Below are positions 1 to 25,364 of a stretch of 49,453 bases of DNA, in pieces. The DNA is from Candidatus Micrarchaeota archaeon. GTDB lineage: Archaea > Micrarchaeota > Micrarchaeia > Anstonellales > Bilamarchaeaceae. The notes beneath the pieces are model-generated. The model had not been told where the DNA came from, did not search any database, and worked only from the letters and a program-made list of their open reading frames with translations. Made by a program: the position numbers and the translations under genes. Every line of letters begins with the position of its first letter. The first letter of the stretch is position 1. Where the stretch lies: the NCBI GenBank assembly GCA_018304385.1, contig JAGVWJ010000004.1, positions 1 to 49,453 on the forward strand, written 5' to 3'.

Positions 1-515
1 ATTTTTGGAACTGCAGATTGTATAAAGCTATCCTTACTTGAGCGAAATCGTTCAATTGTTTCTACCCGACCCCCATTTTGGACGTTCTCCTTTGTTACAC
101 TAATATAAAGATAAACAGTTGCTCTTGTTTGGTCATCCAATTCATCTATCTTTGCTTTTAGCGTATCTGCAAAGGAAATGAAGCTTTGTACCCATTCCTG
201 GCTTTCATATTTCTTACCTAGTTCTCTGACTCTTGTAAGTGCTTCAGCCATTCCAAGTGCTAACTCTGCGTTTTCTGTTTGACCTTTTTTTAAGAAATCA
301 CGAGCTGCCTGGCCAAATGCCTTTATTCTTGGATCACTTGATCTGGCAAATTCTATTGCTGTAAGATCCAGCTTTTTTCGACCAATGTCATGCGTTAAAG
401 CATCGACTGATCGTGTTGCACCGTCTATTGCTGTCTGAGCTGCTACTTCTGTTCTTTGTAAAACTGGCACGATAGGTATAACTTCCGGAGGAAGCTCTCT
501 TTGTCCTTGAGCCAT
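1..515 (-). CDS. Hypothetical protein, truncated by the window edge (MAQGQRELPPEVIPIVPVLQRTEVAAQ...)
   Basis: Hand translation: ATG at 515, frame open to position 1 with no stop; 6 bp downstream of the 522-788 ORF on the same strand. Confidence 0.7.
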   Translation of the reverse strand, partial: MAQGQRELPPEVIPIVPVLQRTEVAAQTAIDGATRSVDALTHDIGRKKLDLTAIEFARSSDPRIKAFGQAARDFLKKGQTENAELALGMAEALTRVRELGKKYESQEWVQSFISFADTLKAKIDELDDQTRATVYLYISVTKENVQNGGRVETIERFRSSKDSFIQSAVPK

Positions 516-521
516 GTAAAA

Positions 522-788
522 TCACTTCATTCCGCTACACAATTCATAAAAAGTTCCAATCCTTTCGGCCATTACCTCTGTATCTTCTGTCGGATATACA
601 TAGCGATCTCTCCAATATTCTAATCCCTCTTTCCATTTTATTAGAAGCTGGAGATCCTTTGGTATTTTCTTACTTTTTATCTTTGTAATATTAAGTTTAA
701 GTGCAAGGTTTATTGATCTCAATGTTTTATCAACGCGCACTCTTGCTTCAGCATCAAGCCTTCTAATCTCTTCTTCCATATCCGCCAT
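522..788 (-). CDS. Small hypothetical protein (88 aa)
   Basis: Abuts the pyrH stop, operon-like packing; no family recognised. Confidence 0.6.
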   Translation of the reverse strand: MADMEEEIRRLDAEARVRVDKTLRSINLALKLNITKIKSKKIPKDLQLLIKWKEGLEYWRDRYVYPTEDTEVMAERIGTFYELCSGMK

Positions 789-1466
789 TCATACCACCAT
801 AGTCCCATTATGCTTCATTCCATTTATCGCATTCTCAACATCATGCAAATTTTTTCCGCTTACAAAATGTGCCTCTATTTTTGAGCGCGCTAAAAGCTTG
901 CACGCGAGCATATCAAATATGAAATTAGTGCCAGCTGTGCGCTTGTCATTTTTTATTGCTAATTCTATCAGTTCATCATAACTAAGCTTTTCATATTTTT
1001 TAGCATGTGGATTGTCTTTTGGATTACTATCATAAATAGCATCTGTATTACTTATATTTATTAATCGCGTTGAGTTAAGCGCTTCTGCTAAAAGAACGGA
1101 ATCAGTATCAGTAGTTATTCCTGGAATCGTTCCGCCCATAACTACTACTTTATGCTTGTCAGCGAGCTTTCGAGCTTTATAGAAATCCTTCAATGCTTTT
1201 GGATAAACGATGCTTCCCAATGCATCAATAACTGCCTTTGCATTCTTCCAGGTTATTTTTATTGCAGCAGTATCACAATCAAACTCACTTGCGCCTTTTT
1301 CGCGCAGCTTTTTTGCTTTTTTTCTTGCTGCAAAGCCGCCACCAACAACTATGCCAAAAGAAGCTTCGCTTTTTTCAATTATTGCCTTTATTTTCGCAAG
1401 ATATTCTTTATCTGTCCCTTGCTCAGTATTTACCAAGCTTCCACCTAATGAGAGAACAATGTGCAT
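789..1466 (-). CDS. pyrH: UMP kinase, archaeal type
   Basis: VLSLGGS, IVVGGGFAAR, MGGTIPGITTD and FDMLACKL amino-acid-kinase motifs typical of archaeal PyrH. Confidence 0.92.
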   Translation of the reverse strand: MHIVLSLGGSLVNTEQGTDKEYLAKIKAIIEKSEASFGIVVGGGFAARKKAKKLREKGASEFDCDTAAIKITWKNAKAVIDALGSIVYPKALKDFYKARKLADKHKVVVMGGTIPGITTDTDSVLLAEALNSTRLINISNTDAIYDSNPKDNPHAKKYEKLSYDELIELAIKNDKRTAGTNFIFDMLACKLLARSKIEAHFVSGKNLHDVENAINGMKHNGTMVV

Positions 1467-1526
1467 TTTAAAACCTCATTATAATATAATTAATGAACAT
1501 TAAAATACTTATTGTGGAGTGATTTT

Positions 1527-2072
1527 ATGGATTTAGGTATAGAAGAAATTGAAAAAACCCTTATGAAAAAAGAGGAGCAATTCGATAAAGTACACGTAAA
1601 GAACAGAGAAATAGTGCGAAGCTGCAGCAATGCGATTAAAGCAATTCATGCCAAAGACATGGACGAAGCGAAAAAACATTTAAAGGTTGCAGAAAATGAG
1701 CTTAATGCAATTGAAAAAATTGCAGGTGAGTTTCCAGAGCAGCTAAATCATATATTACAAGAGTATGCAGAAGCAAAAATTGTCTTAAGTGCAGTTGAAA
1801 GTAAAAAAATTCCTAGTTTTAAAGAGCTCGGAGTAAACGAGATCTCGTATCTGAATGGCTTGCTTGATGCAACTGGCGAGCTTAAACGAGAAATGTATGA
1901 ATCATTGCGTAAAAAAGACAAGAAATTAGCAGAACAATATTTCAAGATGATGGAGGAGATTTACGATGCGCTGCTACCATTGCGCTTTAGTAACTCTGTT
2001 TTACCAGAATTTAGAAGAAAACAAGACATTGCTAGAATCCAGATAGAACAGGCTAGGGGAGAGCTATTGTGA
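1527..2072 (+). CDS. Translin family protein
   Basis: REIVRSCSNAIKAIH, QEYAEA, YLNGLLDATGELKR and FRRKQD motifs; GGAGTGA SD before ATG 1527. Confidence 0.85.
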   Translation: MDLGIEEIEKTLMKKEEQFDKVHVKNREIVRSCSNAIKAIHAKDMDEAKKHLKVAENELNAIEKIAGEFPEQLNHILQEYAEAKIVLSAVESKKIPSFKELGVNEISYLNGLLDATGELKREMYESLRKKDKKLAEQYFKMMEEIYDALLPLRFSNSVLPEFRRKQDIARIQIEQARGELL

Positions 2073-2709
2073 AAATTTTCGATTTAACCATTCCTTTAGA
2101 CGAAAACGCTCCAGTCTATCCAGGAGTTCCCAAGCCAAAAATCTCCTCTGTTTTGAATATTGATACGGATGGATTTAATGAACTAATGCTTAGTATGGAT
2201 TTAATGAACTAATGCTTAGTTTTCCTACGCATACTGGCACGCATATTGACGCGCCATTTCATTGTATAAAAAATGGGAAAAAACTTAGCGATTATGATAT
2301 TTCTTATTTTGTTGGTGAAGCAATAGTTTTTGATTGTAAATGCCAAAAAGAAATCGAATTATCTGAAACCGAACTTAAAAAAATAAAGAAAGATGATTTT
2401 GTTTTTTTCTATACAGGACATAGTGATAATTACAAATCACCAAATTATTTTACAAATTATCCAGTTATTTCAAAGGAAACTGCGCAAGCTTTAGTTGCAA
2501 AAAAAGTAAAAGTTATTGGAATTGATTCACCATCACCAGATAAAGCTCCTTATAAAATTCATTATATCCTTTTAGGAAAAGGTATACCTATTGTCGAGAA
2601 CTTATATAACCTTGCTACGCGCGTAGGCAAACGGTTTAAATGCATTATTGCTCCATTACATATTCAAAATGCGGATGGTGCGCCATGCCGGGTTATAGGA
2701 ATTGATTGA
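2069..2709 (+). pseudogene. Cyclase / kynurenine formamidase family metal hydrolase, frameshifted by a 26-bp duplication
   Basis: GTG 2069 gives MKIFDLTIPLDENAPVYPG; HTGTHIDAPFH, IGIDSPSPD, IVENL and DGAPCRV are in another frame; deleting one 26-bp copy restores one ORF. Confidence 0.85.
2169..2220. repeat. Perfect tandem duplication, 2 x 26 bp (ATGGATTTAATGAACTAATGCTTAGT)
   Basis: Copies at 2169-2194 and 2195-2220. Confidence 0.98.
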
Positions 2710-2710
2710 T

Positions 2711-2992
2711 ATGAATAAAGCACGTTTACATATTACCGTTAGTGGTATTGTACAAGGGGTATTCTTTCGAGCTACTACTTGTGATATGGCAAATGAGCTT
2801 AAGCTAACTGGCTGGGTTAAGAATAGCGAGGATGGAGAAAGTGTTGAAATATTGGCAGAAGGAGACAAGAAAACACTTGAAAAATTCTTAGAATGGTGCG
2901 CCAAAGGCCCTAAGGGCGCAAATGTTGAACAGATAAACTATGATTGGTATAATTTTACTGGCGAACATAGAGGTTTTATAATCAGACACTAG
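2711..2992 (+). CDS. acyP: Acylphosphatase
   Basis: VSGIVQGVFFRA, LTGWVKN and GPKGANV motifs. Confidence 0.93.
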   Translation: MNKARLHITVSGIVQGVFFRATTCDMANELKLTGWVKNSEDGESVEILAEGDKKTLEKFLEWCAKGPKGANVEQINYDWYNFTGEHRGFIIRH

Positions 2993-16800: not shown

Positions 16801-17187
16801 TTATCCAACTACAATTCCATTAACTACGCCATCTTGACCTACTCTATTAGTAACCTTAACCTTACCGGCCTCAGTATTCAAAACAGCGCCTTTTGTAATT
16901 ATATTTTGACGGACGTATTCTGGATTATGACTTTCAAGCACACCTAAAATCTTTGCCTTGCTCATTTTTCCTTCTTTATTTTTAACATTAACAAATGCTG
17001 CTCTTTTTAACTTGGTTTTTAGATTAAATCCCCTGCCTCGGGAAACAACGCGCTCGTCTTTGTCAGCAACCTTTGTTGCTGTAAATACACCGCCAACATG
17101 CGCAAGCTTTTTATCCCTAAACTTAACGCGCTTTCCACCTGTTCCGGAACTTACTTTTTTAGTATGTGGCTTGTGATACTGCTTCAT
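16801..17187 (-). CDS. rps8e: 30S ribosomal protein S8e
   Basis: KVSSGTGGK, RGFNLK, NPEYVRQNIITKGAV and VTNRVGQDGVVNG; GGAGG SD. Confidence 0.97.
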   Translation of the reverse strand: MKQYHKPHTKKVSSGTGGKRVKFRDKKLAHVGGVFTATKVADKDERVVSRGRGFNLKTKLKRAAFVNVKNKEGKMSKAKILGVLESHNPEYVRQNIITKGAVLNTEAGKVKVTNRVGQDGVVNGIVVG

Positions 17188-17201
17188 ATTATGACCTCCT
17201 A

Positions 17202-17288
17202 TATTTTCTCATTACTACAAAGCCGTCGTTTTACTTATGTTCTCTATACAGAGCTCAACTCATGAAACATAAGGTTCGCTCGGCCGTT
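17202..17288 (-). ncRNA. Candidate structured leader RNA, copy 1
   Basis: Shares four identical blocks with 24384-24471; hairpin with a G-U pair on the minus strand. Confidence 0.55.
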
Positions 17289-17325
17289 TAGTATTCCCTC
17301 ATAAAAATAGTAATATATTAATAAT

Positions 17326-17739
17326 GTGCACAGTTTTAAAACACTTATGATGACGCTATTTATTGAATATAAACTAGATTCGGAAGCTGCCTTAAAGGTA
17401 TGTGATTGCTTTAATGCGTTATTAATCGAACCTTCAATTGTTCAATCAAAAGAAGAGCTTAACCTTGCAGAATTTTTATCCAAGCGCTCATTTGAAAAAA
17501 AGAAGAATATCGCAAAAAAATTCAAATATGAATTTTTACTTTGGCTGACTGGCAAACGCGATATAAAAAGTGCAATGAAAGTCAGCGAACCAAAGAATGA
17601 TAGCGCAGTATTGATTTTATTTGAAGGAAAGGATAAAAGGAAAATGTTGAAAGCGCTGAATGCGAAGGAAAAGAAATTAGACTTAAAAAAAGAAGCGGAT
17701 GCGCTTGCATTAGAGAGAATCTCTTTAAGCAGAATTTAG
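17326..17739 (+). CDS. cgi121: KEOPS subunit Cgi121
   Basis: RSFEKKKNIAK, EFLLWLTGKRDIKSAM and ALERIS resemble Cgi121 motifs; start uncertain. Confidence 0.72.
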   Translation: MHSFKTLMMTLFIEYKLDSEAALKVCDCFNALLIEPSIVQSKEELNLAEFLSKRSFEKKKNIAKKFKYEFLLWLTGKRDIKSAMKVSEPKNDSAVLILFEGKDKRKMLKALNAKEKKLDLKKEADALALERISLSRI

Positions 17740-19190
17740 GTTAGTTGCCTCATAAGCACTTCCTTATCAATCGGTATTTCTATATTCAGCACTTTTCTTA
17801 TGAATAAAAACATATCAAGAAATTTATCCTTATCTTTTGTAATCTTTTCAGCCATTTGTTTTATAGTTAGATTCTTATCAATAAGCTCGTATAGCATCAC
17901 GCCCTCACGACCATATTTTTTATAAACAGAAAAACCTGGGTCACCATACTTTCTCTTTACGTCTAACCTAGTAAGAGGTTTCATTATAAGCGCTCCACTT
18001 TGTAATAAAAAGTTTAATATATCTAACGTAGTAAAAAGAGGTAAATTAGTCTTCAGTGATATATCTAATGTATCGATTTTGCCATCAACACTATCCAATG
18101 TCCTTGACCCCTTGTCACCATGCTTAAAAAGAATATCTGCTTTGAGTTTTAGTGTTTTTAGTATATCCAAACCTAACCGCACAGGAACGTCTATTGTTGG
18201 AAAGCCTTTTGGATCCTGACCAGTAACATCTGTATCCGGGCCCATAACATCAGCTATGCCTGTATCAGATACTGGTTTCTCAGTAGGTTCTCCCTTTTCT
18301 TTTTCTTTACCTTCCATTTTTATTATGCCGCGGTCTTCTAGGAAGTTTAATATCTCTACTAATCTTGTTTCTGTTACGCCTGTTTCCTTCATTATTTCGT
18401 CAGTAGTGCGTGATCCATCTATTAGAGTATACACCTTAACGCCAACATCCCCAAATTTATCTTTAATCATTTTTTCTACAGTATTCAATCCTTCTTCTTC
18501 ACCAGCTTCCTCGCTTCCAACATCGCCAAGGCCTTCCTCCGTCATTGAAGCTAAATCAATGGTCTCTTCTTTTTCTGGTTCTAAGGTTTCCTCTTTTTCT
18601 TCTGCTTCTATAATTTCTTCTTTCTTTTCTTCTTCCTCTGGTGCTTCTATTTTGATCTCGTCCTCTTCAGGGGGTTCTATCTTAAACTCTTCTTTCTCTG
18701 GTTCTAGGATCTTTGGCTCCTCTTTTTCCGGTTCTATAACCTCTTCTTTCTTTTCTTCTTCCTCTGGTGCTTCTATTTTGATTTCTTCCTCTTCAGGGGG
18801 TTCTATCTTAAACTCTTCTTTCTCTGGTTCTAGGATCTTTGGTTCCTCTTTTTCTGGCTCTATAACCTCTTCTTTCTTTTCTTCTACTTGTTCTATAATT
18901 TCTTCTTTCTTCTCAACTTCTTCTATTTTTTCTGCACCTACTGGCGTTAACTCAATCATGCCTGCATCTTCCATATAATTAACTATTGCTGCAAAAGCCT
19001 CTGGCTCAATGTCCAAATCCTTCCTAAGATCCTCTGATGTTCTTTTACCTGTTATGACACGGTATATTTGCAGGCCCATCTCACCAAATTTTTTCATTAG
19101 TAGGTTTGAGTTCTTAAACCTCTGAAGGGGTCCTTTTTCTATTTTAACTATTTTATAGTTTTTATCTTTAACGATCGGCATTATTATCAC
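17736..19190 (-). CDS. Protein with repeated winged-helix-like modules and an acidic Glu/Pro repeat linker
   Basis: Four modules like G..G..lY.lIdG.rT..ei...; 42-aa acidic duplication. Confidence 0.7.
   Translation of the reverse strand: MIIMPIVKDKNYKIVKIEKGPLQRFKNSNLLMKKFGEMGLQIYRVITGKRTSEDLRKDLDIEPEAFAAIVNYMEDAGMIELTPVGAEKIEEVEKKEEIIEQVEEKKEEVIEPEKEEPKILEPEKEEFKIEPPEEEEIKIEAPEEEEKKEEVIEPEKEEPKILEPEKEEFKIEPPEEDEIKIEAPEEEEKKEEIIEAEEKEETLEPEKEETIDLASMTEEGLGDVGSEEAGEEEGLNTVEKMIKDKFGDVGVKVYTLIDGSRTTDEIMKETGVTETRLVEILNFLEDRGIIKMEGKEKEKGEPTEKPVSDTGIADVMGPDTDVTGQDPKGFPTIDVPVRLGLDILKTLKLKADILFKHGDKGSRTLDSVDGKIDTLDISLKTNLPLFTTLDILNFLLQSGALIMKPLTRLDVKRKYGDPGFSVYKKYGREGVMLYELIDKNLTIKQMAEKITKDKDKFLDMFLFIRKVLNIEIPIDKEVLMRQLT
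18616..18885. repeat. Intragenic tandem repeat, 126-bp unit, about 2.1 copies
   Basis: Units start at 18616, 18742 and 18868; few substitutions. Confidence 0.93.
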
Positions 19191-19247
19191 TATATGTTTT
19201 TTCTATGAAGAATTAACTTTATTAATTATATCTACCCTATAATTTTT

Positions 19248-20927
19248 ATGGAGTTCGACGAATTGCTTATTACGACAGGTGTAGATGCACTGGTACGGCT
19301 TGTAAGGGAAAAACAACGCGTTGAACTAAAAACAGCTGCGGCGTTATTAAATATCCCAGAGGCAACCATAGAGGAATGGTCCCATATTCTAGAGGAAGAG
19401 GGTATTGTTAAGATAGAATACTACTTAACAAAAATCTATTTGGCATGGGTTACACCAACAGAAGAAAAGATAAAAGTAGAAAAAGAAATGTTCTACCAAG
19501 AAAAAGCAAACGTAGAAAAAGAGATAAGTGAATTAAAATCAAGACTAGCGCCTGATACTGAAAGCCTATCACAGCTTAAACAAACATTCACTAAATTTTA
19601 TAATGAATTTGGACCAAGGCTCGATAAATTGGAGAAAGAACTTGCCAGTATGGCTGGGCAAAAAAATACAGAATTTGAAAAGCAAAAATTAGCCATAACA
19701 AATGTTGATGAAAAATTATTCATGCTGGAAGACAGCTTAAAAGTACTTAAGAATGAGCTTGAAAAAATAAGACTAGACTTGACAGGCGAGGATGCAAAAA
19801 AATCATTTGAACGAATCTATGAAGAGGTTGCATCACTTAGCAGCCAATTAGAAGATGTCGCTTCTAGGGCTTCTAACTACCAAAAGGAGATTCCATCAGA
19901 ATTTCCCCCAGTATCTGAAGTAAAGAAAAAGTTTGAACAAATTAAAAAAGATTTTGATAATGTTAAGAATACAAATGCTAAAATGCGCGATGACTTAGTG
20001 AGCATCCAAGAGAGCTCGGGTGTACTAAAAGAGGTAGAATCATCAATAAAAAAATACGAAACAAGGATATCAGATACAAAAAAGGATCTAGCTGAACTTT
20101 CTGATACTGCAGAAGAACTAAGGTCAAAAAGCACATCACTTGCAGAGAAAATAAATAAAGATATGGAAATAATAGAGCGATTTTCTGATTCTATTGATAT
20201 TGCAAAGGGAGTTTTACAGCGTTTTCCATCTCAAGATGAAATTGCAAAAGAGCTAGCCAGAGTAAAAAAAGTTGAAGATGGCATTCAGGAAAAAATTGGT
20301 GTAGTGTCAGAGTTACTCCATACTCTTCCAAACATAAAAAATCTTACAGATGAGTTTGCACAAATAAAAAGAAGGGCTGAAGAGAAAAAGACAGAGTTAG
20401 AAGATAAATCCGAAGAAATAAAAGACACATTAAAGGAGGGTGCTTCTACATACGCAACATTTGAAAAGATAAAAGAAAGAACACTTCTATCTATCCAAAC
20501 ATATAACGCACAGTTACAGGCAATAGCAGATGACATAAATAAACTAAAGAAAGAAAGTCAGCAGGCTTCTGCGCAGCTAGATCAATCAGCTAAGACATAT
20601 CAAGAAAAACTAAAAAAACAGGACGTATTAGATGTGCTAAAGGCTGCAGAAGATATAAAAAATAAAAAGCTGCTTATGGATGAAATAAATTCCTCCTTAG
20701 ATTCTTTATCAGAAACAGCGGAGAGCATAGCAAAAAGATTGAATCTCCTTGCAAAAGAGGCTGGCATGCTGGATCTGCGCACTGGCGGCGCAGTTACTGT
20801 CAAGGATGTGGAACAGGAAAAACAGATGGTCAATCAGATTAAATTAACACGTCAGGAAGAGGATGAATTTAATAAGAAACGAGAAGAACTTAAAGAACTC
20901 ATAAAGAAATTATGGGAACAGTCATAA
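19248..20927 (+). CDS. N-terminal winged-helix plus long coiled-coil protein
   Basis: TGVDALVRLV...IEEWSHILEEEGIVKIEY followed by about 480 aa of heptad-rich sequence. Confidence 0.75.
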   Translation: MEFDELLITTGVDALVRLVREKQRVELKTAAALLNIPEATIEEWSHILEEEGIVKIEYYLTKIYLAWVTPTEEKIKVEKEMFYQEKANVEKEISELKSRLAPDTESLSQLKQTFTKFYNEFGPRLDKLEKELASMAGQKNTEFEKQKLAITNVDEKLFMLEDSLKVLKNELEKIRLDLTGEDAKKSFERIYEEVASLSSQLEDVASRASNYQKEIPSEFPPVSEVKKKFEQIKKDFDNVKNTNAKMRDDLVSIQESSGVLKEVESSIKKYETRISDTKKDLAELSDTAEELRSKSTSLAEKINKDMEIIERFSDSIDIAKGVLQRFPSQDEIAKELARVKKVEDGIQEKIGVVSELLHTLPNIKNLTDEFAQIKRRAEEKKTELEDKSEEIKDTLKEGASTYATFEKIKERTLLSIQTYNAQLQAIADDINKLKKESQQASAQLDQSAKTYQEKLKKQDVLDVLKAAEDIKNKKLLMDEINSSLDSLSETAESIAKRLNLLAKEAGMLDLRTGGAVTVKDVEQEKQMVNQIKLTRQEEDEFNKKREELKELIKKLWEQS

Positions 20928-20950
20928 TGACATTGATTTTTAAATATCTG

Positions 20951-20971
20951 GTGAATAACCTTGTTATTCAC
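20951..20971. promoter_or_regulatory. Perfect inverted repeat GTGAATAAC-CTT-GTTATTCAC
   Basis: 9-bp arms, 3-bp spacer, between two TATA-like tracts upstream of the pilus ATPase. Confidence 0.55.
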
Positions 20972-21002
20972 AACTATTTAAGAAATATGTAAAGGTGGAT
21001 AT

Positions 21003-22754
21003 ATGCCCAAGGAAAAAAAGGTAAAGGATGCTATTAAAGAAAAGATAAAAGAAAGGCTGAGGGAATTAGCAAAAGAAGAAAAGGCAGCAGAGCAAAAACA
21101 AGAGGAAGTAGAAGAAACCCCAGAACAACCACCAGCTCCTGAACAAGAGGCTGAACAGCCTGGAGAAGAGGTACAACTAGGAGAGCCTGTTGCTGAAACC
21201 GAACCAAAAGTAGAACTACCCGAAGAAGAGGAGAAAAGGAAAATTAAGGTGCCGCTGCTCGCAAATTACTCATTTGAAAGTGAAGGTATACCCATACATG
21301 TAAAAATAATAAAAGTTGGCGAGTTTGTACCTCGTTATGAGATAACAATGCCAAGCGTTGATGCATGGACTAGAAAAATGCTTGAAAGCAAGTTGCGCGG
21401 CGAACTTGTAAGTGAGGTTAAGCTCGATATTAGCGAAATATTAGATCCGAAAAAATTCGAAGAAGTAAAAATGAAGTTCATGGAAGGCGCAAGACGAATA
21501 ATAGATCGCAATTTCAAAGAACAGCTTCCGGATGAGCGCGCGAGAAATATTCTATCTGTTTATCTTTTGCAAAACACGCTCGGATTGGGCAAGCTTGAAA
21601 GCCTGCTTGCAGATGAGCAACTAGAAGAAATTGTTATAAACAATTCGCGCGAACCTATTTGGGTTTATCATAAGAAAAATGGATGGTGCAAATCAAATAT
21701 AAATCTCGAGAGCGAAGAGCAGATATATGATTATGCCTCAACAATTGCACGTAAAATTGGAAGGCAAATAAACATACTAAATCCAACACTTGACGCGCAT
21801 CTGCCGACAGGAGATCGTGTAAATGCAACTCTCTTCCCAATTTCGCATTTTGGAAATACATTAACTATAAGAAAATTCTCAAAAAATCCATGGACAATTA
21901 CCACATTAATAAAAAGTTCTACAATTTCTGTAGATGTTGCTGCGCTTGTCTGGCTATGCATACAGAATGAGCTATCCCTAATTGTATCTGGTGGAACTGG
22001 TAGCGGTAAAACCAGCTTTCTAAATGCAATGGCTGCATTCATACCAGCAAACCAGCGCGTAATAAGTATTGAAGATACGAGAGAGCTTACATTACCGAAA
22101 TTTTTGCACTGGGTACCGATGGTTGTGCGCGAGGCAAATCCAGAAGGCAAGGGCGAAATAACAATGCTTGATCTAATGGTTAATGCATTAAGACAGAGGC
22201 CAGATAGAATACTCGTTGGAGAAATTCGCAGGCAGCGAGAGGCTGAGATTCTTTTTGAGGCAATGCATACCGGGCATAGCGTTTATGCAACGCTGCACGC
22301 AGATAATACTGAGCAAACTATATCTAGATTAACAAATCCACCTATAAATATCCCGCCCCAAATGCTTGATGCATTATCTGGAGTAATAGTCACATTCAGG
22401 CATAGGCGCTTTAATATAAGAAGAATACTTGAGTTTTCTGAGATCCAGAAAAAGGCTGAATTTAATGTATTGTATCGTTGGACTATAAAAGAAGGTGGAG
22501 AAGGATTTACAGATAAAATCAAGCAGGTTTCAAAGATGAGCAGAATCGCAGAACAGCTCTCGCTTTACGCGGGCATGGATGACCATGAAATCGCAGATAA
22601 CATTGCTGAAAAGGTATCTGTGCTAAAATGGATGGTTAAGCAAGATTATGAAACTGTTGATCAAGTGGGCAAGATAATATCGCACTATTATGTTGACCCA
22701 GACGAGGTTCTGGAAGTTGTCAAAAAGAATGGTAGCTGGGAGTTTAGTGAATGA
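21003..22754 (+). CDS. Type IV pilus / secretion ATPase 1 (TadA/VirB11/ArlI family)
   Basis: Walker A GGTGSGKT, SIEDTREL, ALRQRPDRILVGEIR and HTGH. Confidence 0.95.
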   Translation: MPKEKKVKDAIKEKIKERLRELAKEEKAAEQKQEEVEETPEQPPAPEQEAEQPGEEVQLGEPVAETEPKVELPEEEEKRKIKVPLLANYSFESEGIPIHVKIIKVGEFVPRYEITMPSVDAWTRKMLESKLRGELVSEVKLDISEILDPKKFEEVKMKFMEGARRIIDRNFKEQLPDERARNILSVYLLQNTLGLGKLESLLADEQLEEIVINNSREPIWVYHKKNGWCKSNINLESEEQIYDYASTIARKIGRQINILNPTLDAHLPTGDRVNATLFPISHFGNTLTIRKFSKNPWTITTLIKSSTISVDVAALVWLCIQNELSLIVSGGTGSGKTSFLNAMAAFIPANQRVISIEDTRELTLPKFLHWVPMVVREANPEGKGEITMLDLMVNALRQRPDRILVGEIRRQREAEILFEAMHTGHSVYATLHADNTEQTISRLTNPPINIPPQMLDALSGVIVTFRHRRFNIRRILEFSEIQKKAEFNVLYRWTIKEGGEGFTDKIKQVSKMSRIAEQLSLYAGMDDHEIADNIAEKVSVLKWMVKQDYETVDQVGKIISHYYVDPDEVLEVVKKNGSWEFSE

Positions 22755-22757
22755 TTG

Positions 22758-22824
22758 GTTGTGAGTTTGTAGTTATGAGTTTTGAGTAACGTAAACCCAA
22801 AACTCCAAACCCATAACTCAAAAC
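22758..22824. repeat. Inverted 7-bp-period repeat hairpin (GTTNTGA / ACYCAAA units)
   Basis: 30-nt arms, 22 of 30 positions pair, 7-nt loop. Confidence 0.8.
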
Positions 22825-22834
22825 AGTGAGATAT

Positions 22835-24340
22835 ATGCCTGATGACTTTTACTCTGCTGTTGAGACTGCAAAAAAGATTGAAAAAAATGCATTAGAGCAC
22901 ACTAATTTTTCTGATAAAATAGAGGTTGTTAGATCTTTAGATTTTGAACCAAGAGAATTTGAGGATTTAACCTACCAAGATCTAGTAGCTATGTATCAAA
23001 CAATCGAAAAGATAATGAGTGCTGCAAAAATACTTGGTGGCGTACAAGCACCGGTAACCAAAGCTGAAAAGGCTAAAACAGAAGAGGTTGAAACAAAGGT
23101 CAAGGAGATAACTACTGAAAGCTTGGAAAGTGTGGAAGAACTTGCAAAAGAGATTGAGAAACCCAGGATTGAAGAAAAAATAGAGGTTGCAAAAGCTGAA
23201 AGTAAAACCACAGAGGAAATAACATTATTGGACTTTGAAGCCCCTTCAAAAGAAAAACAAGAGATTGAAATAGAAAAACCAATAGAGATTAGAAGGCCAA
23301 TTGAAAAACCAACACAACCAATAGAAAGAGAAAAAGTAGAGATTGCAAAAACTATAGAAGAGACAAGACCTATTGAAGAGAAACCAGGGGTTGGTGAGGT
23401 AGCTGTACCTGCGATATTGGAAACATCTGCACAGGAAGCAGCTGATACAAAATACAAAGATATTGAGGAATATTTAAGCAGAGAATGGGGCGGTGCAATC
23501 GATGAGACAAAGATAAAAAGGAAAATGCTTGATCTCACAAAGGACTTGTTTAAAGAAAAATCAATTTCCGCAAGGGAACGCATAAAACTCGAAATAACTG
23601 TCCTTAAGAACATGTCTACCAGAATTAAAGAAGGTGGAAAAAGGAAAAATGCTGCAGCGCCAAAAGCAGAATACTCCCAGAATGTACTTGAGACGATCAG
23701 GTCAACCCAACGTAGTGAACTATCTTCTATAAAAGATGAAATACAAACATCAATTACCAAGCAAACCACTGCTATAAAAAATAGATTCTTTGATGCGATA
23801 AAAGGATTACCTGATGATAGCATTAATGAGAAAAAGGCTGTTTATGAAAAACTTGTGTTTGACCTTACTGCGTTAAATGAACAATTGCCAGAAGTCTTAA
23901 AGAAATCAGAGGAATTTCTCATTCAAAAGCACTCGGCTGAGCTAAAAAATTTAACTGAAAAGGATGCGAAGGTAGCAAAGGAAGCTCAGACTCAGTTAGA
24001 CCAATTGAATGATAGGTATAAAAGAGAATTTTCAAATCTTAGAAGTATAGTTTCAAAGAATATTGATTCTATTACAGAAGCTGCAGCAAACGAAATCTTT
24101 GGAAGGGAAGAAAAAGAGGCGAAGGTAGCTGGTATGGTGTATGAGATAAATGAAACAGATGAAGGTACGCTGCTTTACTACTTGCATTCCAAGGACGCTG
24201 ATTACTATAAGAAATATGAAAGAAGTCATATCTCAAAGACAGAGGCTTTACATCGTGCAAAAACATTAATGGGTAAAGAGAAAGGTTTAAGTGAAGATGC
24301 CATAAGTAAATATTTTGGAAAGGTAGAGAGTGAAGATTAA
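22835..24340 (+). CDS. Hypothetical acidic coiled-coil protein in the pilus operon
   Basis: Long ORF between the ATPase and platform genes. Confidence 0.75.
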   Translation: MPDDFYSAVETAKKIEKNALEHTNFSDKIEVVRSLDFEPREFEDLTYQDLVAMYQTIEKIMSAAKILGGVQAPVTKAEKAKTEEVETKVKEITTESLESVEELAKEIEKPRIEEKIEVAKAESKTTEEITLLDFEAPSKEKQEIEIEKPIEIRRPIEKPTQPIEREKVEIAKTIEETRPIEEKPGVGEVAVPAILETSAQEAADTKYKDIEEYLSREWGGAIDETKIKRKMLDLTKDLFKEKSISARERIKLEITVLKNMSTRIKEGGKRKNAAAPKAEYSQNVLETIRSTQRSELSSIKDEIQTSITKQTTAIKNRFFDAIKGLPDDSINEKKAVYEKLVFDLTALNEQLPEVLKKSEEFLIQKHSAELKNLTEKDAKVAKEAQTQLDQLNDRYKREFSNLRSIVSKNIDSITEAAANEIFGREEKEAKVAGMVYEINETDEGTLLYYLHSKDADYYKKYERSHISKTEALHRAKTLMGKEKGLSEDAISKYFGKVESED

Positions 24341-24383
24341 TAGGTAATTATTGGTGAGTTTAACTTACATAAGAAATGCATAG

Positions 24384-24471
24384 AACGGCCGACGTGGCAT
24401 AAAGAATATATAAGACCACGTCACTATAGAGAACGTAAGTAGTATGACGGCTTTATAAGAATGAGAAAATA
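24384..24471 (+). ncRNA. Candidate structured leader RNA, copy 2
   Basis: Blocks identical to 17202-17288 (minus strand); GACGTGG/CCACGTC stem. Confidence 0.55.
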
Positions 24472-24485
24472 GAGGAAGATACAGC

Positions 24486-25364
24486 ATGGTTTTAGATAAA
24501 TACAAAAAAAAAGGAGAACGAAAAGAGGAAGCTCGCGGGCCACTTACATCTTTTGCAGAGTTTTTATTGCCTCGTTCTCCTGATCTCAAAAAAAAGCTTA
24601 CACTAGCTGATATAAAAAAATCACCTCTTAAATTCTTAGAGCAGGTTGTTGCATCTACATTTTTTCTTTCAATAGGCTTATGGATAATAACCGCTGTATT
24701 TTTTGTTCAATATGAGGTTTGGCCTGTTTATTTCATCTTACCATTGATTCTATATCCATTTATTGCATTTAAATATCTCATGTTCTATCCAGATGCAATG
24801 ATAACAAAAAGGCAAAAGAGTATTGATTACGACATAGTATTTGCTGGGAGACATCTTGTTATTGCGTTAAAATCTGGTATGCCGTTATTTGATAGTATGG
24901 TTGGTCTTAGACGTGGCTATGGCGAGGTAAGCAAAGAATTTGATAAGATTGTTGAGAATGTAACATTGGGCACACCGCTTTCGCAAGCACTGCGCGAGGT
25001 TGCACAGTTTAATCCTTCTAGGCATTTTGTTCGTGTATTAATGCAAATATCCAATGCACTATCTAGTGGGGCAGATGTTGGAAATTCACTTGAAGCTGTA
25101 TTATCCCAGATTGCAGAGGAGCAAAAAATACAACTTAAAGAGTATGGACAAAAGCTAACACCAATTGTAATGTTCTTTATGGTATTTGGTATAATACTCC
25201 CATCAATAGGCGTTGTTCTATTAACAGTTTTATTCTCAGTTGTTAGCGCGGGCGATAAAGGATTTACGTCTTACATTTTATTACTTATACTTGCGTTTAT
25301 TAGCATTGTACAATTCCTATTCCTTGGAATTGTTGAAAGTTCAAGACCAAAATATTTAATATGA
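24486..25364 (+). CDS. Type II secretion F-family (TadB/C, ArlJ-like) platform protein
   Basis: ALKSGMPLFDSM, YGEVSKEF and QISNALSSGADV motifs; TM helices. Confidence 0.88.
   Translation: MVLDKYKKKGERKEEARGPLTSFAEFLLPRSPDLKKKLTLADIKKSPLKFLEQVVASTFFLSIGLWIITAVFFVQYEVWPVYFILPLILYPFIAFKYLMFYPDAMITKRQKSIDYDIVFAGRHLVIALKSGMPLFDSMVGLRRGYGEVSKEFDKIVENVTLGTPLSQALREVAQFNPSRHFVRVLMQISNALSSGADVGNSLEAVLSQIAEEQKIQLKEYGQKLTPIVMFFMVFGIILPSIGVVLLTVLFSVVSAGDKGFTSYILLLILAFISIVQFLFLGIVESSRPKYLI

Follow-up and report, generated by a model that had tools for sequence, protein, structure and literature searches.

Two functionally unrelated genes in one stretch of archaeal DNA, the gene for ribosomal protein S8e and a gene with a T2SSF domain, are preceded by what appears to be the same leader, which raises the question of what kind of element they share. 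The stretch analysed, called the window here, covers positions 1-49,453 of contig JAGVWJ010000004.1 of assembly GCA_018304385.1 from Candidatus Micrarchaeota, a tiny groundwater archaeon whose genome (G000) comprises 1.53 Mb on 65 contigs, has 36.5% GC and is 89% complete. Both copies have the layout that the initial annotation had described: AACGGCC, a hairpin, TATAGAGAAC-R-TAAGTA, GACGGCTTT, AATGAGAAAATA, 14 nt and the ATG. Their hairpins, again as reported, have different sequences, and each of them folds. The 26-nt pattern of the 3′ part is expected 0.01 times in the window and is found twice, and a covariance model of the element (see below) returns the two copies with E-values of 5e-28 and 4e-20. 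The statement that the leaders belong to no recognised family also stands, since Rfam has no match for either copy and the Rfam 15 covariance models give 0 matches in the window at the gathering score.

The copy at rps8e lies on the minus strand. It contains AACGGCC (17288-17282), a P1 hairpin of 31 nt (17281-17251, by folding) with a stem of the 'GAGC' subtype (GAGC/GCUC and CUUAUG/CAUGAG), TATAGAGAACATAAGTA (17248-17232) and an unpaired conserved tract, the C tract (TATAGAGAACATAAGTAAAACGACG; 17224-17248), whose sequence is near-invariant across copies. The D box follows together with the AATGAGAAAATA block (GACGGCTTT..AATGAGAAAATA; 17202-17227), then the Shine-Dalgarno (SD) sequence GGAGG (17199-17195), a spacer and the ATG (17187-17185) of the S8e reading frame (16801-17187, minus strand, by Pfam). 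A TATA-like box does precede the element, as had been noted: the TATA-like region (17296-17320) consists of TAATATATTA (17320-17311), the tract that had been pointed out, and of box A, CTATTTTTATGAGGG (17310-17296), which is defined by homology with other copies.

The second copy lies on the plus strand, and its 5′ part (24341-24390) begins directly after the stop codon TAA (24338-24340) of the upstream gene. It has a single TGGTGAGT octamer (24352-24359), box A (TTTAACTTACATAAG; 24359-24373) and AACGGCC (24384-24390), followed by a P1 hairpin of 32 nt (24391-24422, GACGUGG/CCACGUC, by folding), TATAGAGAACGTAAGTA (24425-24441), the conserved C tract (24425-24449) and the D box (TTTATAAG) with AATGAGAAAATA (GACGGCTTT..AATGAGAAAATA; 24446-24471). 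At its end (24472-24488) an SD-like GAGG (24472-24475) and ACAGC lead to the ATG (24486) that opens the T2SSF-domain gene (24486-25364, plus strand, by Pfam). The 504-aa reading frame at 22826-24340, directly upstream of two T2SSF-domain genes, is kept in relatives, and no Pfam family matched it at E up to 0.01.

The element is not specific to these two genes. It is a repeat family: the same genome holds 42 copies, a count given alike by a regex scan, by nhmmer and by a covariance model trained on 29 copies, and they stand before functionally unrelated genes as well as tRNAs. By the covariance model, two genomes of the same genus hold 12 copies (G002) and 4 copies (G001), a genome of another genus of the family (G004) gives 3 weak matches, and a further 37 genomes (0.8-1.6 Mb) from the family and order give none. 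Copy number differs about ten-fold between species, and the range is essentially one genus. Scans of wider collections used an exact 25-nt pattern, as looser patterns were expected to give hundreds of chance matches; among 185,579 species genomes this pattern was found in one other record, Candidatus Micrarchaeota isolate nzgw32, and it had no match in viral contigs or JGI metagenome contigs. In the literature we found no description of the element for Micrarchaeota or DPANN. The copies have a mean pairwise identity of 69% and a maximum of 91%, and because they are mutually related, counts over copies overstate independence. Since the same blocks are near-invariant in almost all copies despite this low mean identity, the element appears to be under selection at each locus.

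With respect to the range, an insert upstream of FEN1 in G002 (C159, L081) deserves mention. At this gene G000 has a cassette and G001 has none, while G002 carries a different, apparently degenerate hairpin-rich insert that contains AGACG..CGTCT, ATTATAAAAACATGAG, AGTGCTTGAGCACT and an SD. As the covariance model did not detect this insert, the family may be older and wider than the model counts.

A covariance model and a search of related genomes had been suggested as a check, and the further copies that they yielded show what is conserved as structure. The sole consensus helix given by RNAalifold is the 7-bp hairpin. In 29 copies 99% of its cells are paired, with compensatory changes in five of the seven pairs; in an alignment of 56 distinct copies from 4 genomes, which was fitted to the covariance model, 94.7% are paired and six of the seven pairs show compensatory changes, as compared to 22-52% pairing in slid controls. 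The 'GAGC' stem subtype of the rps8e copy is also present in G001 and G002. The closing helix between GGCC and GGCU that had been proposed does not hold up, as only 67% of its cells pair in the 29 copies and three of the four pairs are broken in 11-14 copies each. The remainder of the element is conserved as sequence rather than structure, and the most prominent part of it is an unpaired purine-rich tract, CUAUAGARAAYAUAAGUAGUACGACG ... AAUGAGAAAA. A pairing partner for the C tract was sought in the alignment of copies and none was found, and the stability of the whole leader is not above that of shuffled sequence (z = -0.22 and -1.68 for the two copies).

These results bear on the proposal that the leaders are a cis-regulatory RNA, with a metabolite riboswitch or a self-cleaving ribozyme as candidates. 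The general part of this proposal fits what we see, namely a repeated, conserved non-coding element without a known family, with a covarying hairpin and a fixed distance to the start codon. The specific part is highly improbable. The element has one conserved helix only, the closing helix fails, and the alignment contains neither an anti-SD nor an alternative helix. A search of 16900-24800 with Rfam matched no ribozyme family at E up to 10; the only matches were chance-level ones to snR78 and ToxI, elsewhere in this interval. Furthermore, a distribution over essentially one genus with a ten-fold variation in copy number speaks against either type of RNA. A protein-binding leader, which had also been suggested, may still apply.

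A full copy is about 145-200 nt long. From 5′ to 3′ it consists of optional TGRGY octamers, box A (TTTAYATAAG), a spacer of about 19 nt, the hairpin and the C tract, followed by the variable D box, AATGAGAAAA, the SD (or AAGTATAATA in RNA-type copies), ACAYAG(C) and the gene start. The form ACAUAG(C) runs directly up to the native start codon or to base 1 of the tRNA, and the end of the hairpin is 60-65 nt, mostly 64 nt, away from the ATG.

Two further sequence features are associated with the cassettes. The octamers occur in about half of them as TGAGC/TGGGC/TGAGT runs with a period of 8 nt, located after the upstream stop and before box A, and they are enriched about ten-fold relative to the genome background (examples are 24352-24359 in the window and the loci L002, L005, L007 and L029). 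Furthermore, inserts in the form of small, perfect hairpins turn up at different places in the cassettes, where they precede the main hairpin, interrupt its loop, or separate C from D or D from SD. They are seen in L014 (G000:C12:67214-68209), L021, L022 and L038, in L030/L035, in L028/L037 and in L065 (G002:C185), and leaders of G002 contain them too. Examples are CCAGAGACC..GGTCTCTAG followed by CTCTTCAAG..CTTGAAG, TTGTTGC..GCAACAA, and CTTGTCAC..GTGACAAG. The impression is of mobile mini-modules that form a second layer.

About 32 of the 42 copies are located directly before a gene start, comprising 21 canonical copies at protein genes, about 6 that are insert-bearing or degenerate, and 5 at tRNA genes. 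About 9 copies are tail-to-tail with the 3′ end of a convergent gene (the SRP RNA and six protein ORFs) or are truncated, and L015 and L038 have no assigned downstream gene. The proteins encoded downstream include S8e, S27e, L30, aIF2-gamma, RpoN, Spt4, TBP, FEN1, GlmS, PyrI, GDH, PIN, GT2 and T2SSF proteins, among others. A tabulation of downstream genes had been recommended; they share no common pathway and include tRNAs, which again argues against a metabolite sensor. Of the 41 oriented copies, 32 are in sense with a gene start.

The clearest relation to the downstream gene is that of the SD, which is present in all 21 protein-gene copies and in none of the 11 RNA-type copies. On a tree of the core that was built without the SD, protein and RNA types are fully interspersed (9 changes as compared to a shuffled mean of 8). 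The presence of the SD thus tracks the downstream gene rather than descent.

How the cassettes came to their present positions can be seen by comparison with relatives. In G001, G005 and G009 the gene before T2SSF and the T2SSF gene are 0-6 nt apart or overlap, and in this genome a block of 145 nt separates them. Similarly, S5 and L30, S6e and aIF2-gamma, an MBF1-like gene and FEN1, and rpoN and tRNA-Pro are 0-30 nt apart in G001 and other genera and are separated here by blocks of 145-200 nt. Because the same pairs are so close together in relatives, the blocks are insertions. In all five pairs the block extends precisely from the upstream stop to the native start, and the N-termini are unchanged. 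At rps8e, the ancestral TATA box of the relatives, TGTATATA, has decayed to TGTGCACA, and a new AT-rich region with box A lies downstream of it. In G001, copies are located at other genes. Such presence and absence at orthologous genes is a further point against a riboswitch or ribozyme.

The insertions raise the possibility that the cassette is a selfish miniature mobile element, similar to a MITE, REP or PATE, whose hairpin and blocks serve mobilisation as single- or double-stranded DNA. A promoter effect would then be incidental, and the position at gene ends would only reflect that tiny spacers are the sole tolerated sites. Several observations are in line with this, among them the differing numbers in the three congeners (42, 12 and 4 copies), the orthologous sites without insertions, the roughly nine tail-to-tail, orphan or truncated copies, the tandem copies (L014, L042), the degenerate remnants in G002, and the fact that orthologous tRNA-Pro copies differ in stem type. 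We nevertheless regard this reading as unlikely. At the five filled and empty orthologous sites there are neither target-site duplications nor terminal inverted repeats, so that the idea of a MITE end, which the initial annotation had named as a possible objection, finds no support there. A search for the Y1 transposase of the IS200/RAYT type (PF01797) gave no match in the 89%-complete genome, whereas control genomes matched. Moreover, near-invariant blocks at a mean identity of 69% point to selection per locus, the SD follows the downstream gene and not descent, and most copies are in sense with a gene start.

Taken together, the element lacks what defines MITEs, REPINs, riboswitches and known ribozymes. 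Both sequences in the window are members of one dispersed intergenic cassette, and we consider it probable that this cassette combines a portable promoter, a 5′ leader and an SD. It has gone into the very short spacers of tightly packed genes, often splitting an ancestral gene pair. According to this reading, box A would direct initiation at the base of the hairpin or close to it, giving the downstream gene a transcript of its own that opens with the hairpin and continues through the common leader to a ribosome-binding site at the right spacing. The hairpin and the conserved tract may stabilise this transcript or have a regulatory role.

The element is most likely transcribed as a leader; the agreement between the SD and the type of downstream gene, the 55-nt inserts of two copies (see below) and the covariation of the stem all speak for transcription of its 3′ part. 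Box A is the best candidate for the promoter. Among the three AT-rich boxes it comes closest to a TATA box, with a mean of 1.85 mismatches to TTTAWATA, and it is located about 19 nt before the hairpin. In archaeal core promoters the TATA box, with a BRE, is about 26 nt upstream of the start. Against box A, if it is taken as the 8-mer, initiation 22-24 nt further on would begin 3-4 nt within the stem. A genome-wide positional histogram of TATA matches, which was based on crude ORF calls, was noisy and defined no local promoter consensus.

One can also envisage a more proximal promoter, with the D box (or the C tract) as the TATA box and the start at YAG (or in AATGAGAAA), such that box A, the hairpin and the C tract would be untranscribed regulatory DNA or transcribed by read-through only. 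In favour of this, the distance between TTTATAAG and the A in the conserved YAG is 23 nt, the canonical archaeal spacing between TATA box and initiator; the -10 region of RNA-type copies is AT-rich (AAGTATAATAYAG), and their YAG is 1-3 nt before the first tRNA base; and the conservation of ACAYAG between SD and ATG is otherwise unexplained. However, a start at YAG would leave the SD untranscribed, and yet the SD is present or absent in strict agreement with the type of the downstream gene. The D box is the most variable part of the element outside the loop, and covariation of the stem requires a single-stranded form. Furthermore, L030 and L035 carry a hairpin insert between the D box and the SD that places 55 nt between D and YAG, and for these two copies the transcription start must therefore lie upstream. 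All this makes a proximal start rather improbable. A comparison of the D-box TATA between the two types did not bear out a better match in tRNA copies than in protein copies (2.4 versus 2.55 mismatches).

With box A as the promoter, the cassette before a tRNA gene would give rise to a pre-tRNA with a leader, to be removed by RNase P. The genome has a candidate for RNase P RNA (G000:C40:14199-14404, L094). Its 206 nt match the archaeal model from end to end, with a score of 69.4 bits as compared to a cut-off of 84 bits; this may be a reduced form of the RNA. The tRNA genes themselves are unusual. Within the 1.53 Mb of the 89%-complete genome, the Rfam tRNA model matches 4 tRNAs and ARAGORN finds 2, and the tRNAs identified by eye after cassettes hold long introns, as in tRNA-Ala(GGC) with its intron at position 37 and in the tRNA-Pro after rpoN (loci C26:24142-24283, C24:~44767 and C20:87286-87355). 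Most tRNA genes of this organism thus seem to be too interrupted for standard finders.

A more far-reaching idea is that the shared leader unites about 30 mRNAs and several pre-tRNAs in a post-transcriptional regulon by way of one lineage-specific RNA-binding factor or trans-acting RNA. The factor would recognise the 5′ hairpin together with the purine-rich tract and would set stability or translation of the members jointly. We give this a small chance only. If it were true, the members would include the mRNAs for ribosomal proteins, aIF2-gamma, TBP, Spt4 and RpoN, and the system would be an archaeal counterpart of the eukaryotic 5′-TOP, built by the spread of a cassette in a symbiont with a reduced genome.

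The cassette can be compared to several known types of repeats. The Correia elements (CREE) of Neisseria as well as ERIC and BOX are small dispersed intergenic repeats of bacteria. They are transcribed, form hairpins, and can act on adjacent genes by providing a promoter or by changing expression. Correia elements have terminal inverted repeats of 26 bp and a TA target duplication, neither of which the cassette has, and these bacterial repeats are in no fixed register with start codons, in contrast to the cassette. Its extra hairpin units recall the modular build of BOX. REP and BIME sequences are likewise dispersed intergenic repeats that form hairpins, and they can stabilise mRNA when transcribed within operons. 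Compared to the cassette, REP, BIME and REPIN sequences are shorter, often occur as inverted pairs and have neither promoter nor SD, and REPINs depend on the RAYT (Y1) transposase, for which, as described above, the genome of the cassette gave no match.

A closer likeness is to the putative mobile promoters (PMPs), which are similar upstream sequences before non-homologous genes of one genome without a recognisable transposon (PMC3575422). They have been defined by at least 80% identity over at least 50 nt at -150 to -50, most of them are pairs, they were proposed to rewire transcription, and RNA motifs can be part of them ('Promoter propagation in prokaryotes', Matus-Garcia, Nijveen, van Passel 2012; 'Promoter reuse in prokaryotes', PMC3575422). 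As with PMPs, the cassette places highly similar leaders before non-homologous genes of one genome: the T2SSF copy and the GlmS copy are 91% identical over 92 nt and several other pairs are 84-89% identical, above the PMP threshold, whereas the rps8e copy has at most 67% identity to another copy (76% outside the hairpin) and is below it. The cassette differs from PMPs in that it forms a family of 42 copies with a mean identity of 69%, reaches the start codon, has an SD and a covarying hairpin, precedes tRNAs and belongs to a DPANN archaeon.

Within the Archaea, the intergenic repeats of halovirus HF2 carry archaeal-type promoters before different genes, whose activity was shown with a bgaH reporter (PMC8707807). 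These are viral repeats of 58 and 29 bp that are not known to have a conserved hairpin leader or SD; the cassette is cellular, 145-200 nt long and also precedes tRNA genes. Dispersed promoter-carrying repeats are known mainly from bacteria and one group of haloviruses, and here a cellular DPANN archaeon with a compact genome appears to use one cassette at more than 30 loci. It appears to have split the S5-L30, S6e-aIF2-gamma and rpoN-tRNA-Pro pairs as well as the pair that ends in T2SSF, and to have placed a common promoter-like box, leader and ribosome-binding site before core genes of transcription and translation and before tRNAs. It would illustrate clearly how promoters and leaders can propagate naturally in Archaea, and organisms without genetic tools would gain a defined expression module that can be tested. 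For annotation, the case is a warning against taking every repeated structured leader of an ultra-small genome for a riboswitch.

The tail-to-tail copies, about 9 of 42, are left unexplained by a pure promoter role. At these sites the cassette might serve as a terminator by way of its antisense strand, which is rich in T. A tandem pair of cassettes that is head-on to the 3′ end of the SRP RNA gene is kept in G000 (L014, C12) and in G001 (L042, C10), and one copy in G002 faces the 3′ end of the 5S rRNA. The sequence that follows the tandem pairs (C12 and G001:C10), and that which follows a copy in G002, had at first resembled the start of a tRNA; it is complementary to the 3′ termini of the SRP RNA and the 5S rRNA. 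The SRP RNA genes (486-745 in L014, G000:C12; 1229-1489 in L042, G001:C10) are below the Rfam cut-off, with 71.7 as compared to 96.5 bits in G001 and only a weak match to the small SRP model in G000.

Lastly, one reverse-transcriptase fragment is present in G000, at a contig end and with no demonstrated link to the cassette. At locus L092 (G000:C2:16500-19364), the RVT_1 gene (E = 2.8e-13; 1838-2865, minus strand) is seemingly split into two ORFs, and a 40-nt tandem duplication (944-1023) marks the point where the adjoining purD (457-1702, plus strand) is likewise divided in two.
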